Below are positions 1 to 5,536 of a DNA stretch of 64,000 bases, piece by piece. How positions within the stretch are numbered: the stretch's first letter is position 1; every line of letters begins with the position of its first letter. The position numbers were made by a program, and so were the translations under genes. The notes under the pieces were generated by a model. The model made no database searches. It had not been told where the DNA came from and saw only the letters and a program-made list of their open reading frames with translations. The stretch spans positions 704,001 through 768,000 of the forward strand of contig CBDFJG010000004.1 of the NCBI GenBank assembly GCA_965248445.1. The letters are read 5' to 3'. The DNA comes from Planctomycetota bacterium. GTDB lineage: Bacteria > Planctomycetota > JAJSAM01 > JAJVHW01.

Positions 1-1820
1 ACCAGGGCGCCGAGCACCTCGCTGCGTGCCACTTGAGCGCCCGAAATCTGTGCGGGGGCACTCACCTCATCGAGGGGAAGTAGAAGACACCCGCCGGAGC
101 CGGACTCGCGCAGGTATGCCGCCGCGCGCTCCGCACTCGCAAACGAATCGACGACGACGGCGGACGCGTACGGGCCGAGCGCCGCCGCAACCGCGGGCGC
201 GTCCGTGGTGTCGACCTCGATCAGATCGGCGAGCGCTCCGCGGACACCGCGCGGACCGCCGCGTTCCTTCGATGCGGCGACCAAGCGGCGCGCTCCGTCG
301 GCGAGGCCGTCCATTCGCGTGCACAGGTCGTCGAGCAGATCGCGGCGGCTGGACAGCGCGGAGTCCTCGCGCTCGAGGGCGGAGACCTCGTCGCGGCGCT
401 CGGCCAGTTCGGCCTCCGCGTCGGCGCTACGCTGCTCGGCGGTCGCCAGCTCCGCGGCCGCATCCCGGGACGCGGTCTCGGCGCGTGTCGCGACGTCGGC
501 GGCCTTCTCTGCACGGCGCTCGGAGGAGGTCTGCTCGTCCGACAGTCGGTCGCGCGTCTCGGAGAGTCGTCCCGCCTGCACATCCAATCCCTGGACCTGC
601 GCATCGAGCCGCGAGCGATCCCGCTCCAGTTCCGCGCGCCGCGCGAACGCGGCGTACGCGCGGCGTTCGAGGTCCTCTGCGCGCTCGCGTCGTTCGGCGA
701 CGTCGCGGGAGCGCGACGCGATCGAGGTCTCCGCCGCGCGAACCTCGTCCTGGCGGGTCGCGCGATCGCGCTCCGCTTCGCCAAGCGTGCGCAACACGTC
801 TTCGCCGGTGCCGGCGAGTTCTTCGAGTCGCTCGAGCGACGCGTCCACTTCCTCGCCGTACCAGCGAATCTTGCCGTCCAACTCGGCGGCGAGCCGTGCC
901 GCGAACGCGGACTTCTCGTGCGCCGTCTCCATGCGGCCTTCGAGCGACGCGATGCGCTGTTCGAGGCGCGACGCGGTCGTGCGCGCGGTGTCGACGTGTT
1001 CCTCGGCGCTGCGACAGTCCGCGAGGGCCGCTTTGACCAGATCACGCGCTTCGCGCTCGCCGGAATCGAGTTCTTCAACCTGCTTCGTGGCGCGGTCCCG
1101 CTCCGCCGTCAGCTTGCCGTAGCGGTGCACCGCGAGGGAGAGCCGCTTCTTGCGCATCTTGTCGAGCAAATCCCGATAGCGCTCAGCGCGGCCGGCCTGG
1201 ATCTTGAGGGATCGAACCAGGCGCTGCTTCTCCGCCACGAGGTCGGAGATGCGGAGCAGATCGGCCTCGACGCGCTCGAGGCGGCGGAGCGTCTCCTTGC
1301 GCCGCGCCTTGTACTTGGCGATCCCCGCCGCTTCCTCGAAGACCGCCCGGCGATCGGAGTGGCTCTCGCGCAGGACCTGGTCGATCTTGCCCTGCTCCAT
1401 AATCGTGAGGGCACCGGGGCCGCTGCCCGTGTCCATCAGCATCTCGCGCACGTCCCGCAGGCGGCAGCGGTTGCGGTTCAGCAGGTACTCGCTGGTCCCG
1501 TCGCGGTACAGGCGGCGGGTCACCTCGACCTCGCTCCACTCGACGTCCAGCTTGTCGTCCGGATTGTCGAAGATCAGCGTCACCTCGGCGAGTCCGAGGG
1601 CCTTGCGGCCAGCGGCGCCGGCGAAGATGACATCGGCCATCTCCTTGCCGCGGAGGGCGCTGGGACGCTGCTCGCCGAGAACCCACTTGATCGCGTCGAC
1701 GACGTTCGACTTGCCGCAACCGTTCGGGCCGACGATGCACGTCAGGCCGGTCGGGAAGTGGAAGTCGGTCTTCTTCGCGAACGACTTGAAGCCGAGCATC
1801 GACAACTGCTTCAGACGCAT
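1..1820 (-). CDS. smc: Chromosome segregation protein SMC, N-terminal part (continues beyond left edge)
   Basis: Manual translation from ATG 1820: MRLKQLSMLGFKSFAKKT...IVGPNGCGKSNVVDAIKWVLGEQRPSALRGKEMADVIFAG (SMC Walker A region), followed by coiled coil. Absent from the ORF track, consistent with no stop inside the window. Confidence 0.96.
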   Translation of the reverse strand, partial: MRLKQLSMLGFKSFAKKTDFHFPTGLTCIVGPNGCGKSNVVDAIKWVLGEQRPSALRGKEMADVIFAGAAGRKALGLAEVTLIFDNPDDKLDVEWSEVEVTRRLYRDGTSEYLLNRNRCRLRDVREMLMDTGSGPGALTIMEQGKIDQVLRESHSDRRAVFEEAAGIAKYKARRKETLRRLERVEADLLRISDLVAEKQRLVRSLKIQAGRAERYRDLLDKMRKKRLSLAVHRYGKLTAERDRATKQVEELDSGEREARDLVKAALADCRSAEEHVDTARTTASRLEQRIASLEGRMETAHEKSAFAARLAAELDGKIRWYGEEVDASLERLEELAGTGEDVLRTLGEAERDRATRQDEVRAAETSIASRSRDVAERRERAEDLERRAYAAFARRAELERDRSRLDAQVQGLDVQAGRLSETRDRLSDEQTSSERRAEKAADVATRAETASRDAAAELATAEQRSADAEAELAERRDEVSALEREDSALSSRRDLLDDLCTRMDGLADGARRLVAASKERGGPRGVRGALADLIEVDTTDAPAVAAALGPYASAVVVDSFASAERAAAYLRESGSGGCLLLPLDEVSAPAQISGAQVARSEVLGAL

Positions 1821-1920: not shown

Positions 1921-2658
1921 TCATGAGCGCACGCTACGGGACCCGCCCCGCACCCCGAAGTCCTGTCGCGGTCGCCCCTCGATCACGCAGCTCTCCGCGT
2001 GCCGGCCCGCCAGGCGTCCGACCGCCTGCAGGTTCCGCAGGCCGGGCTCGCCGCCCGGCGCTCCCAGGAGGACCACGCGCCGGGCGCCCGAGAGCATGCG
2101 CAACACAGCGCCCATCTGCTCCGTCTCGACCACTCCCGGAAGCCACGGGACGCGGAACTCGTGCTCGCCCGGCGCGTGCAGCAGTAGCTCGACGGACTCG
2201 AAGACCGACGCGAGCCGGACGCGAGCTCCGGCCGCCACCGCGTAGCTCGGGTCGAGGGGCGCGCGGACCGTCATCGCAACGGAGGAGATCTCGCCCGTCT
2301 CGAGCACCTCGCGCAGTCGCTCCGGCTGCGAACCGTTGGTGTGCAAACGGACGCGCAACCCCAGTTCGCGGACGATCCGGACGAGATCGATCAAGCCGTC
2401 GTGAAGCGTCGGCTCCCCGCCCCCGATCACGACGGCATCGAGCCAGCGTCGTCTGCGATACAGCGTCTCGGTGATCGTCTCGACTGGAATGGTGCCGGCC
2501 TCGCTGTGCTCGGCGACGAGGTGAGGAACCGGGCACGCCGGGCACCGGAAGTTGCAGCCCTGCAACTCCAGCACGGCCGTGACGCGGCCCTCCCACGCCG
2601 TCAGCGAGACCGGATCGAACCCGCGCACCGGGGGGAGCGGCGGCGGACGCCTCACCAT
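1921..2658 (-). CDS. nrdG: Radical SAM protein, anaerobic RNR activase (NrdG)-like, divergent
   Basis: C-terminal part of ORF 1921..3471 from ATG 2658, overlapping the upstream TGA; motifs GCNFRCPAC (CxxxCxxC), GGGEPTL, HTNGS, EFR. Confidence 0.8.
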   Translation of the reverse strand: MVRRPPPLPPVRGFDPVSLTAWEGRVTAVLELQGCNFRCPACPVPHLVAEHSEAGTIPVETITETLYRRRRWLDAVVIGGGEPTLHDGLIDLVRIVRELGLRVRLHTNGSQPERLREVLETGEISSVAMTVRAPLDPSYAVAAGARVRLASVFESVELLLHAPGEHEFRVPWLPGVVETEQMGAVLRMLSGARRVVLLGAPGGEPGLRNLQAVGRLAGRHAESCVIEGRPRQDFGVRGGSRSVRS

Positions 2659-4697
2659 GCGCCCACCTCCACACGATCGACCGAGCCGACCCGCAGGAGC
2701 TTCGTCAGCACGGCGACCAACCCGGCGGCGCCACCGGTCTCGTCGGGCGCCAGGCCGAGAGAGAGCGTCGCATCGCCGAGCGATTCGTGCAGCGCCTCCT
2801 CGGCGACGATTCGCGTGAGGAGGTCGGCGCCGCCGTCGTCCCGCGTGCGGACACCCGGGGTGTAGCGCGAACGGCCGGGGAACGCCTCGGTGAGCGAGAC
2901 CGGCGCCGTGCGGGCATCTGCGTCGAAGAAACGCCGGGCCACGAAGACGCTCTCGTCCGCATCGAGCGTCGTCTGCAAGTCGTGAACCAGCCCGGCTTCC
3001 CGCACGCACATCGCGAGGTGCTTGAGCACGCGCCGCGCGTCCCGCGCCGCCTGCTCGGCTCCGTCGTGCAACTCGAATCCGGTGAGGTGCTGGAGCGCCT
3101 CGTTGAGGCCGCTGACGGCCACCGACCAGGTGCAGGCCGAGAGATCGACGAGCGGCTGCCGGCCGCGGGTCCCCCGCAGCAGGGACGTCAGCGGGCCGGC
3201 GGCGCCACCGCCGGCGTGCGCCAGGAGCTCGCGGCGCGCGGTGTGTGCGCGCACGGCCCGATCGACGAGGGCGTCGCACGCGCGCTGGAACCCCTCGAAG
3301 TTCCGCCGCCCGACCCGCGCAGCCGCGCGCGGCAGGTTCAGGGTCACCCGTCCCCCGACGGCGCGGCGGTCGGCGCACTCTCCGCGCGCGGCGCCGCCGC
3401 GCAGGAGCTGGAAGCGAACGCGGGCACCCGCCGCGGCGGCGGCCGCCGCGCGCTCGAGCACGCGTCGCCACGGTCCGTCTGCGAGCATCGCCTCGCAGAC
3501 CTGCACGACCGGGCGAGGCAGCGTCGCCCGCGGCGGAAGACCGTCAGGTCGATGCAGCGCGCGCAGGACGGCGCTCGCGAAGCGCGCCCCCGCGTCGCCG
3601 CCCTCGCGCGGCACGGCGAACACGAGACGCGGCGCTCGTTCCCCGTCCTCCGCCGCCGTCTCGTGGAGGACGTGCCACGCTTCCTCGCTGACCGCCTCGC
3701 GCGAGGCGTCGCTGGTAAGCAGTCCAAAGGCGTCGGCGACCCCGTGGAGATACACGCGGTCCACAACCGCGGCGTTCAGCCAGCGGGCACCGCGGCCGAG
3801 CGCTGCCGCCAACCGGCGGCTGGATCGGCCGACACCCTCCGGCGCACGGGCGGCGACGTGCGGGAGCTGGCCGTGGAGGACGTCCGCCGGCGCGAGCGCC
3901 GCGCGGAAGAGCGCGGAGGGCGCGGTCAGGCCGTGCACGTGGAGTGCCCCGCCCAGGTGGTCCTCGGCGGCGTCGGACGGCAGCACCTGGAACAGCGCAT
4001 GGCTCTGCATCGCCGCCCCGCCGAGGTGCTGTGCGGCGATGCGGGGTGAGACCGGGCGATTCGCCACGCGCCCGCGCAGGGCCGCAGCGACGTCCTGCGA
4101 CGAGAGCACCGTCGCGCCGCGGCGGCGGAGGTCGAGTTCCGGTGCCCGTTCGATCAGCGCGGCTTCGGCGAGCGACCGCACCGTGGCGGACGGGGCGCGC
4201 GACACGCTCGCCCTACGCAGTTTCGTCTCGACGTCGGCGGCGGCCTCGTCGGCGACGCCCCGCGTCGCTCCGGTCTCGGCGACGAGCATCCGCGCCAGGC
4301 GCTCACGTGAGAACGGCGTGCTCACCCCGGCGGCGCCGTCGTCGACCTGGATCACGCCGTGCTCGAACAGCGAGGGTTCGAAGATGCCCGAACGGGCCGC
4401 TCGAATCGCGCGCAAGCGGCGCTGCTCCTCACGATGCAGAATGAACGCTTTGGCGGCGGCGGCGTGGCCTGTGTCGATCAGGACTGTCCCGACCATGTCG
4501 TCGACGTCGTCGGTCGTGGGGATCTCGTCGTGGAACGACTTGCCGAGGAACACCTCGACCATCGACGCTACTTCGCGCACGAGACTTCGCTCGCCGCCAG
4601 CGGCCAGCAGCGCGCGATCCACGACCTCGAGGATCCGGTGCTGGTCGAACGGCACGGTGCTGCCGTCACGCCTGCGGACGAGTGCGACGCGCCTCAC
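2652..4697 (-). CDS. Class III RNR (NrdD)-like protein with N-terminal ATP-cone(s), lacking the C-terminal Zn-finger/glycyl-radical domain
   Basis: ATP-cone start VRRRDGSTVPFD; a second cone-like segment PFSRERLARML; NrdD barrel landmarks DHLGGALHVHGL, VTLNLPRAA, SGLNEAL, ARRFFDAD, RIVAEEALH; no CxxC pairs and no RxxGY. Confidence 0.8.
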   Translation of the reverse strand: MRRVALVRRRDGSTVPFDQHRILEVVDRALLAAGGERSLVREVASMVEVFLGKSFHDEIPTTDDVDDMVGTVLIDTGHAAAAKAFILHREEQRRLRAIRAARSGIFEPSLFEHGVIQVDDGAAGVSTPFSRERLARMLVAETGATRGVADEAAADVETKLRRASVSRAPSATVRSLAEAALIERAPELDLRRRGATVLSSQDVAAALRGRVANRPVSPRIAAQHLGGAAMQSHALFQVLPSDAAEDHLGGALHVHGLTAPSALFRAALAPADVLHGQLPHVAARAPEGVGRSSRRLAAALGRGARWLNAAVVDRVYLHGVADAFGLLTSDASREAVSEEAWHVLHETAAEDGERAPRLVFAVPREGGDAGARFASAVLRALHRPDGLPPRATLPRPVVQVCEAMLADGPWRRVLERAAAAAAAGARVRFQLLRGGAARGECADRRAVGGRVTLNLPRAAARVGRRNFEGFQRACDALVDRAVRAHTARRELLAHAGGGAAGPLTSLLRGTRGRQPLVDLSACTWSVAVSGLNEALQHLTGFELHDGAEQAARDARRVLKHLAMCVREAGLVHDLQTTLDADESVFVARRFFDADARTAPVSLTEAFPGRSRYTPGVRTRDDGGADLLTRIVAEEALHESLGDATLSLGLAPDETGGAAGLVAVLTKLLRVGSVDRVEVGAW

Positions 4698-5302
4698 CTG
4701 CTGCGCCCGCCCTTCTGTTTGGGCTTCGTGGACCTACCGCGGGCCGTCTTCTTCGCGGTCTTCTTCGGCGCCTTCTTCGGGGTCTTCTTCTGGGTCTTCT
4801 TCTGGGACTTCTTCTGGGACTTCTTGCGCTTTGCCGGCGTCTTCCGGCCACTCGGCCGAGCGACCTCTTGCGCGATGGCCTCGAAGTCCTGCGCCGACTC
4901 GAAGTTCTTGTAGACCGACGCGAACCGCACGTACGCGACCTTGTCGATCTTCTTGAGTTCGCGCATCACGAGTTCGCCGATCCGCACGGTCTCGATCTCG
5001 CGGTCGGACGACGTCAGGATCTTCTCTTCGACGCGCGCGGCGATCTCGTCGAGTTCGTCGAGTGCAACGGGGCGCTTCTGGCAGGCCGTGAGGAGCCCCA
5101 TCAGGATCTTGCGGCGCTCGAAGTCCTCGCGCGTGGCGTCCCGCTTGACGACGCGGAGCGGCGTCTCGCGGATGATCTCCCGCGTGGTGAACCGCTTGGC
5201 GCACGCCTCGCACTCGCGGCGCCGACGAATCACGTCACCGTCCGCGCTCTCGCGCGAATCGATGACCCGATCCCGGTTCTCCTTGCAGAACGGACAGCGC
5301 AT
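4694..5302 (-). CDS. nrdR: Transcriptional repressor NrdR with Lys-rich C-terminal extension
   Basis: MRCPFC...VIDSR...IRRRRECEACAKRFTT zinc ribbon, ATP-cone, DKVAYVRFASVYKNF. Confidence 0.97.
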   Translation of the reverse strand: MRCPFCKENRDRVIDSRESADGDVIRRRRECEACAKRFTTREIIRETPLRVVKRDATREDFERRKILMGLLTACQKRPVALDELDEIAARVEEKILTSSDREIETVRIGELVMRELKKIDKVAYVRFASVYKNFESAQDFEAIAQEVARPSGRKTPAKRKKSQKKSQKKTQKKTPKKAPKKTAKKTARGRSTKPKQKGGRSR

Positions 5303-5489: not shown

Positions 5490-5536
5490 CAACTACATCT
5501 TGGGGTGCTGTGAGTTTACGCCGCTACCGGTTGAGT
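5490..5536. promoter_or_regulatory. Tandem NrdR boxes
   Basis: CAACTACATCTTGGGG (5490-5505) fits acaCwAtATaTwGtg; a weaker CCGCTACCGGTTGAGT (5521-5536) starts 31 bp later; both upstream of nrdR. Confidence 0.75.

Follow-up and report, generated by a model that had tools for sequence, protein, structure and literature searches.

The window analysed here is a stretch of 64,000 nucleotides from a Planctomycetota bacterium (contig CBDFJG010000004.1, positions 704,001 to 768,000), and near its start it carries three overlapping open reading frames (ORFs) on the minus strand. These are nrdR (4694..5302), encoding a repressor with a zinc ribbon, an ATP-cone and a Lys-rich C-terminal tail; nrdD* (2652..4697), encoding a 681-residue homologue of class III ribonucleotide reductase (RNR) without radical machinery; and nrdG* (1921..2658), encoding an NrdG2-type radical S-adenosylmethionine (SAM) homologue. 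The 5' part of smc (1..1820), which runs off the window, follows on the same strand 100 bp downstream of nrdG*. The three overlapping ORFs had been reported in a first-pass annotation of the DNA and were confirmed. Four contigs of a single sample, possibly its source, are identical to the stretch. Sequence comparison indicates that this is an inherited class III RNR operon in which both NrdD* and NrdG* are under purifying selection, and it is very probable that both proteins are dead for catalysis yet kept for a function.

The fold of NrdD* was retained. A Pfam profile recognised an ATP-cone at residues 7-93 (PF03477, E 2.7e-19; window 4419..4679, minus strand) and gave only a weak NRDD match, and the score against TIGR02487 (39.7 bits) was below the curated cut-off of 326.35. 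In a structure predicted from a 27-sequence alignment (predicted local distance difference test, pLDDT, 84), class III RNRs were the best structural matches, and a ten-stranded alpha/beta barrel of the class III type was present. Both the model and the sequence comparison placed the C-terminus at the last barrel strand, where class III barrels stop and ahead of the glycyl radical domain, as had been noticed earlier. No RxxGY glycyl radical loop was found at the C-terminus of NrdD*, and its cysteines, located only at 401, 441, 474, 522 and 564, did not form a CxxC...CxxC zinc site. Among the 27 close homologues, none has a C-terminal radical tail or a CxxC within the last 150 residues.

The catalytic motifs of the barrel were also altered. 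In class III RNRs, an HxHD motif and a betaA Cys are described, and mutation of either loop cysteine inactivates the enzyme (PMC4493059); the finger-loop classes are MGCR and xCCR (PMC9669993). Neither finger-loop motif was found in NrdD*, where the loop is shortened to a 16-residue remnant that reads GECAD (residues 433-449; 3351..3401, minus strand). C441 in this remnant aligns with SACCR and is not conserved, a Cys being present there in 1 of the 27 close homologues. The HxHD triphosphate motif has become HVHG, and the betaA position that follows it is R265 (3903..3941, minus strand); a Cys was found in this column in none of 68 proteins from Planctomycetota loci that lack SACCR and are defined here as dead. 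NrdD* reads HVHGLTAPSALFR, DADESVF and RYTPG where intact relatives read HxHDLGYPTRVYC, ESPAES and YYTNS (the latter two at 2853..2963, minus strand). The nearest intact NrdDs, located at the same locus in Planctomycetota, carry all three of these motifs together with SACCR, CxxC-CxxC and RIVGY. The dead NrdDs have also lost the NxN flap and ESPAES. In the barrel of NrdD*, H255, N532 and E533 are conserved within the close family. The degenerate motifs and the single remaining loop cysteine described in the first-pass annotation were verified. The two outcomes that it had named as contradictory were searched for, and neither was found: there was no full-length NrdD at this locus in close relatives, and the alignment contained no alternative radical Gly and no catalytic Cys set in NrdD*. 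Judged by its sequence, NrdD* is not an active class III NrdD. Because the defining features are lacking, NrdD* and NrdG* are not assigned to the active NrdD and NrdG families.

NrdG* scored above the TIGR02495 (NrdG2) family cut-off and retained CxxxCxxC (2533-2556, minus strand), GGEP, TNG and EFR. It was aligned to the pyruvate formate-lyase activating enzyme (PFL-AE) by way of an intact NrdG. In this alignment, the aromatic residue and the His at the third Cys and the equivalents of D104, D129 and K131 were replaced by A41, P43, H106, T130 and R132, respectively, with DTNG changed to HTNG (2332-2343) and MDxKAP to MTVRAP (2257-2274), both on the minus strand. The residues lost include some that contact the cation and the adenine; in PFL-AE, Asp104 and Asp129 are ligands of the activating K+ (PMC10267522). 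Among 85 close homologues of NrdG*, the cysteine triad was present in all 82 that cover it, GGEP and TNG were (nearly) invariant, and the D129 and K131 equivalents were absent from all 85. In NrdGs adjoining an intact NrdD or one lacking only the glycyl loop, both equivalents were kept (36 of 36), and three NrdG copies of one family (f3) were intermediate between the altered and the intact form. No glycyl-radical substrate for NrdG* was found in the window's genome (92% complete, 4 contigs) or in the order relatives searched, and the 17 genomes of the order yielded no PFL-like enzyme. NrdG* showed dN/dS values of 0.11-0.31 and was more conserved within the family than smc (73-84% versus 59-65% identity). 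NrdG* and NrdD* were present together in the same 15 of the 17 order genomes, the other two being 87% and 76% complete. The chances that NrdG* acts as a cluster-bearing partner appear to be about even.

To describe the distribution of the gene, 401 genomes of the phylum were searched, and 228 of them matched at E<=1e-30. From among the matches listed, 112 loci were picked by hand to span families and scores; the resulting proportions (29 intact, 13 without the Gly loop only, 1 cut off and 69 dead) are therefore not frequencies. Three non-NrdD or duplicate frames were dropped, and one frameshifted locus (L051) was left out of the trees and conservation counts. The 69 dead loci came from 26 families; 1 was frameshifted, and 2 were cut by contig ends. 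A nrdR gene lay within 450 bp upstream, often overlapping, in 67 of the 69 dead loci and in 28 of the 29 intact loci, and smc was found in the downstream flank of 58 of the 69, tightly coupled in many. The dead proteins were 474-803 residues long, with long branches in the tree, and new lineage-specific invariant residues had arisen in them. By the Nei-Gojobori method, 13 pairs of dead NrdDs gave dN/dS values of 0.16-0.53, compared with 0.09-0.46 for the matching smc pairs, and pairs with NrdD* of the window gave 0.37-0.46 versus 0.34-0.46; since high G+C content at third codon positions depresses dS, these are upper estimates. A class I/II barrel was present in all 14 relatives carrying the locus. 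Taken together, purifying selection, conservation centred on the cones and presence in 26 families support the earlier proposal of a retained non-catalytic role.

Two further kinds of copies were observed. In family f67, two copies (L151 in G118 and L152 in G194) lack the catalytic cysteines, keep the zinc site and have the loop Gly replaced by Asp (RIADY); by their motifs, they represent an intermediate stage of loss. In two genomes, G047 (L066, L076) and G023 (L057, L075), the NrdD at the nrdR locus is dead and a second NrdD, encoded elsewhere, bears SACCR.

The ATP-cones were the best-retained part of the dead proteins. In cone 1 of NrdD*, R9, R10, F85 and R89 correspond by motif spacing to K7, R8, Y83 and R87 of Prevotella copri NrdD, in whose cone basic and aromatic residues hold nucleotides (PMC11226230). 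Cone 2 (about residues 118-185; 4143..4346, minus strand) is more diverged: it gave a weak NCBIfam match, appeared as a hairpin with helices in the model and aligned with cone 2 of intact NrdD. When positions that do not vary among intact NrdDs were compared, dead proteins from outside the window's order (n = 54) retained 74% in cone 1, 72% in cone 2 and 10-32% in the flap, barrel and finger loop; the window's order retained 80% in cone 1. The second ATP-cone is thought to be non-regulatory in other RNRs (PMC9669993). From these sequence data, the ATP-cones of NrdD* probably bind nucleotide.

In the genome of the window, PF13597 matched at this locus only, PF01228 gave no match, and a class II NrdJ with catalytic motifs was found to be encoded elsewhere. 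Upstream of nrdJ lies a perfect tandem pair of NrdR boxes, the best-scoring in the genome. NrdR boxes are described as two 16-bp sites 15-16 bp apart with key bases C4, A6, A8, T9, T11 and G13 (PMC13584703). Two putative 16-bp boxes at the expected spacing were found upstream of nrdR in the window: site 1 (CAACTACATCTTGGGG; 5490..5505, no strand assigned) matches all six conserved positions, and site 2 (5521..5536, likewise), 31 bp from site 1, is imperfect, with the central AT replaced. None of 30 shuffles was as good as this pair, and 4 of the 5 family relatives carry similar pairs (p<=0.05). Because a repeat in the genome yields box pairs scoring equally, support for the window boxes comes from their position and recurrence in relatives. 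That dispersed repeat contains CCACAACATCTTGATC and has about 38 copies (e.g., at C4:337106).

Several other features of the genome and locus were recorded. The distance from the NrdR boxes to the nrdJ start is about 530 bp (C2:573362-573924), and the portion of it contained in L002 gave no match in Rfam. A transposon at C4:435986-436979, which we take from its motifs to be IS1595-like, carries a perfect NrdR-box core close to each end, with one of the two lying just upstream of the transposase; it occurs in about 5 copies and a related element in about 7, and its transposition could be controlled by NrdR. The Lys-rich tail of the window's NrdR comprises about 55 residues (KKTPKKAPKKTAKK; 4694-4860), and the tails of order relatives are shorter and basic or acidic. 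The gap between nrdG* and smc (1830-1890) contains short imperfect direct repeats, with GAACCCACACT occurring twice. The window also encodes cytochrome c oxidase subunit III, which would fit an oxygen-using organism without further need for class III chemistry.

A candidate non-canonical beta-clamp-binding motif, EPSLF, is located in the disordered inter-cone linker of NrdD* (4365..4379, minus strand), in a flexible segment with pLDDT <50 at residues 102-113. The clamp-binding consensus is QL[SD]LF, in which positions 1, 4 and 5 matter most (bioRxiv 10.64898/2026.05.27.728225), and QPDLF of MuC binds the clamp (PMC12867686). An xxxLF motif was found in this linker in 14 of 14 order members, with Gln at position 1 in 7 of 14; the forms include QGTLF, QRELF, QRSLF, QGRLF, QPTLF and EPTLF. 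In family f7, 7 of 8 proteins carry QxxLF in a loop of the barrel, and in G030 the C-terminus is QPSLF. Across whole proteins, QxxLF occurred in 16 of 66 dead NrdDs versus 3.4 expected by shuffling. Taking three loop sites together, 31 of 68 dead proteins have LF at one of them and 15 of 68 have QxxLF, versus 0 of 43 other NrdDs in each case. Tethering of NrdD* to the beta-clamp by a gained LF motif is tentatively suggested, with the odds somewhat against it. Elsewhere in the same genome, a protein that is presumably RuvB-like, to judge from its C-terminal motif (C3:587218-588486), ends in the clamp-like sequence QGSLF.

The favoured reading, to which a probability of about 0.42 is given, is that NrdD* serves as an adaptor that senses ATP/dATP without catalysis and is produced under feedback from NrdR; tethering to the clamp would be the best candidate for its output, and in the order NrdG* would be its cluster-bearing partner. 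According to this reading, NrdJ would make the deoxynucleoside triphosphates (dNTPs), and NrdR would repress nrdR-nrdD*-nrdG*-smc via the tandem boxes, the encoded proteins rising when dATP is low. Binding of ATP or dATP to the outer cone would shift the conformation or oligomer state, with the barrel serving as a scaffold. The gained xxxLF motif would recruit NrdD* to the beta-clamp and so link nucleotide status to replication or SMC-dependent segregation. In the window's order, NrdG* would bind both NrdD* and a [4Fe-4S] cluster and would bring in oxygen or SAM as a further signal. Of the non-catalytic roles proposed in the first-pass annotation, that of a (d)NTP sensor remains a plausible suggestion.

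A number of findings weigh against the sensing adaptor. The gene had no match in 173 of the 401 genomes at E<=1e-30 and is therefore dispensable in many lineages. The dN/dS values of dead NrdDs exceed those of intact and Gly-less pairs (0.03-0.26, where computable). NrdD* of the window carries extra deletions and retains only 54% (cone 1) and 40% (cone 2) of the invariant residues; outside the order, cone 2 is retained as well as cone 1, so structure rather than sensing may be the cause. Cys occurs at the betaA column in 2 of the 27 close database homologues. Only 29 of 66 dead loci had a box pair that stood up to shuffling, versus 23 of 28 intact loci, and nrdG is missing from 54 of the 69 dead loci, 14 of the 15 that retain it belonging to the window's order. 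The three LF sites were picked after inspection of the sequences, and 37 of the 68 dead proteins have no LF at any of them. Since related proteins do not count as independent cases, the LF total reflects perhaps 3-6 gains. Moreover, position 1 of the window's motif is Glu, and DnaE, DinB and MutS of this genome have Gln motifs.

Other explanations were considered. NrdD* may act on NrdR directly, as a co-regulator or as a sink: by joining or titrating NrdR oligomers, its cones would tune how strongly nrdJ and the operon of NrdD* itself are repressed. The position of nrdR directly upstream in nearly all dead loci, the retention of the cones and the NrdR boxes preceding both operons are in line with this explanation. 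However, the nrdR linkage is ancestral, being present in 28 of the 29 intact loci, and therefore requires no new function, and a folded 470-residue barrel and the LF gain are left unexplained; this explanation is considered unlikely. Alternatively, the genes could be slowly decaying relics, kept in frame by weak selection against misfolding and only to carry translation and NrdR control to smc. Low barrel conservation, the variable lengths, the long branches, the absence of the gene from many lineages and the tight coupling to smc in many loci agree with decay. It is nevertheless improbable, since dN/dS equals that of smc, NrdG* is conserved above smc, only one of the 69 loci is frameshifted, new invariant residues have arisen, and a short deletion would yield the same coupling. 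That NrdG* and NrdD* form a new enzyme, in which the radical SAM protein works on a barrel-bound ligand directly, without passing through a glycyl/thiyl relay, would be consistent with the (nearly) invariant cysteine triad, GGEP and TNG, with the conserved H255, N532 and E533 and with the co-occurrence of the two proteins in the order. This is improbable given the replaced residues of NrdG*, the loss of the substrate-binding motifs of the barrel and the absence of nrdG from most dead loci.

The first-pass annotation had also proposed a split enzyme receiving its radical in trans, and relatives at the same locus give this idea some substance. The 13 NrdDs without RIVGY retain 94-99% of the invariant residues outside the tail, as well as the zinc site and the catalytic cysteines, and on the tree the loop was lost in at least 4-6 separate events. 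In 11 of these 13 genomes, a 107-150-residue protein with an uncharacterised N-terminal domain ends in the exact NrdD radical loop; such stand-alone proteins lie at L202:1486-1818 (G126) and in L195, L197, L198, L201, L203-L205, L209, L210, L213 and L214, and named homologues include Ca. Scalindua and Ca. Brocadia. Among the 401 genomes, the small gene was found in families f35, f94, f82, f99, f41, f16 and f86, with one weak match in f47, and in no dead-clade family. Family f35 has mostly an intact NrdD together with the small gene, as expected of a spare part; at one f35 locus (L120, G319) that has the small gene, RIGDY stands where the other f35 copies examined have RIVGY, apparently a recent loss of the Gly loop. 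Five single-contig genomes of one genus in f41 each contain one Gly-less NrdD and the small gene, with no match to PF02867, PF00268 or TIGR02505; with no other RNR found, they offer a clear-cut case for testing whether the glycyl radical is supplied in trans. By co-occurrence, GrcA-like supply in trans fits the Gly-less Planctomycetota at this locus. The trees do not show the dead clade passing through a Gly-less stage. For NrdD* itself, the proposal that it is the large half of such an enzyme is largely refuted, because no Gly-loop gene was found in the window's 92%-complete genome, the 14 order relatives or the dead-clade families among the 401 genomes, because NrdD*, unlike the split relatives, lacks the zinc site and the thiyl-radical and betaA cysteines, and because its activase is without key residues.

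RNRs are treated as enzymes, and conservation of a dead class III copy in 26 families implies that the ancestral NrdD already possessed, or came to acquire, another role that survived the loss of its chemistry. Should that role be nucleotide sensing at the clamp, dNTP pools would be tied to replication or segregation in bacteria in a way that experiments can address. The pseudo-activase kept alongside would represent a radical SAM protein converted into a sensor. A broader version, in which the whole radical-enzyme system became a signalling module across much of the phylum, is speculative and on balance doubtful: the cones would read ATP/dATP, NrdD* would ride the clamp, the NrdG* cluster would read oxygen or SAM, NrdR feedback and SMC co-expression would couple dNTP status to replication and segregation, and split forms would be the route there. 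In a literature search, no class III RNR described as dead or as supplied in trans was found; PMC3653736, PMC12288474 and PMC9326890 add none in the excerpts available, and Planctomycetes are not mentioned in the parts covered of two family-wide RNR phylogenies (PMC9669993, PMC9531940).

Among known systems, NrdD* is nearest to class III NrdD of the double-cysteine SACCR type, represented by P. copri (8P2S, 8P23), S. thermophilus (9D3X), T. maritima (4COJ, 4U3E) and phage T4 (1H7B). Unlike these, it is without the glycyl domain, zinc site, betaA Cys, conserved loop Cys, NxN flap, HxHD Asp and PAES, and it has gained the linker LF motif. NrdG* shares CxxxCxxC, GGEP, TNG and EFR with NrdG2 (TIGR02495) and PFL-AE (3CB8, 8FO0) and differs from them in the replaced aromatic before the third Cys, the next His and the D104, D129 and K131 equivalents. 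GrcA (YfiD) is the spare part of pyruvate formate-lyase; its logic matches the small Gly-loop proteins of relatives, anammox bacteria included, whereas such a part is absent from the window's order and could not rescue a barrel without cysteines. The beta-herpesvirus RNR large subunits UL45 and M45 are inactive and kept the fold after loss of the catalytic residues; they are viral, derived from class I and have host-signalling roles, whereas NrdD* is class III, chromosomal and bacterial and is paired with a degenerate activase. With NrdR and other ATP-cone regulators, NrdD* shares the ATP-cone as the conserved working part; unlike NrdR, it has no DNA-binding zinc ribbon and carries two cones on a dead barrel.

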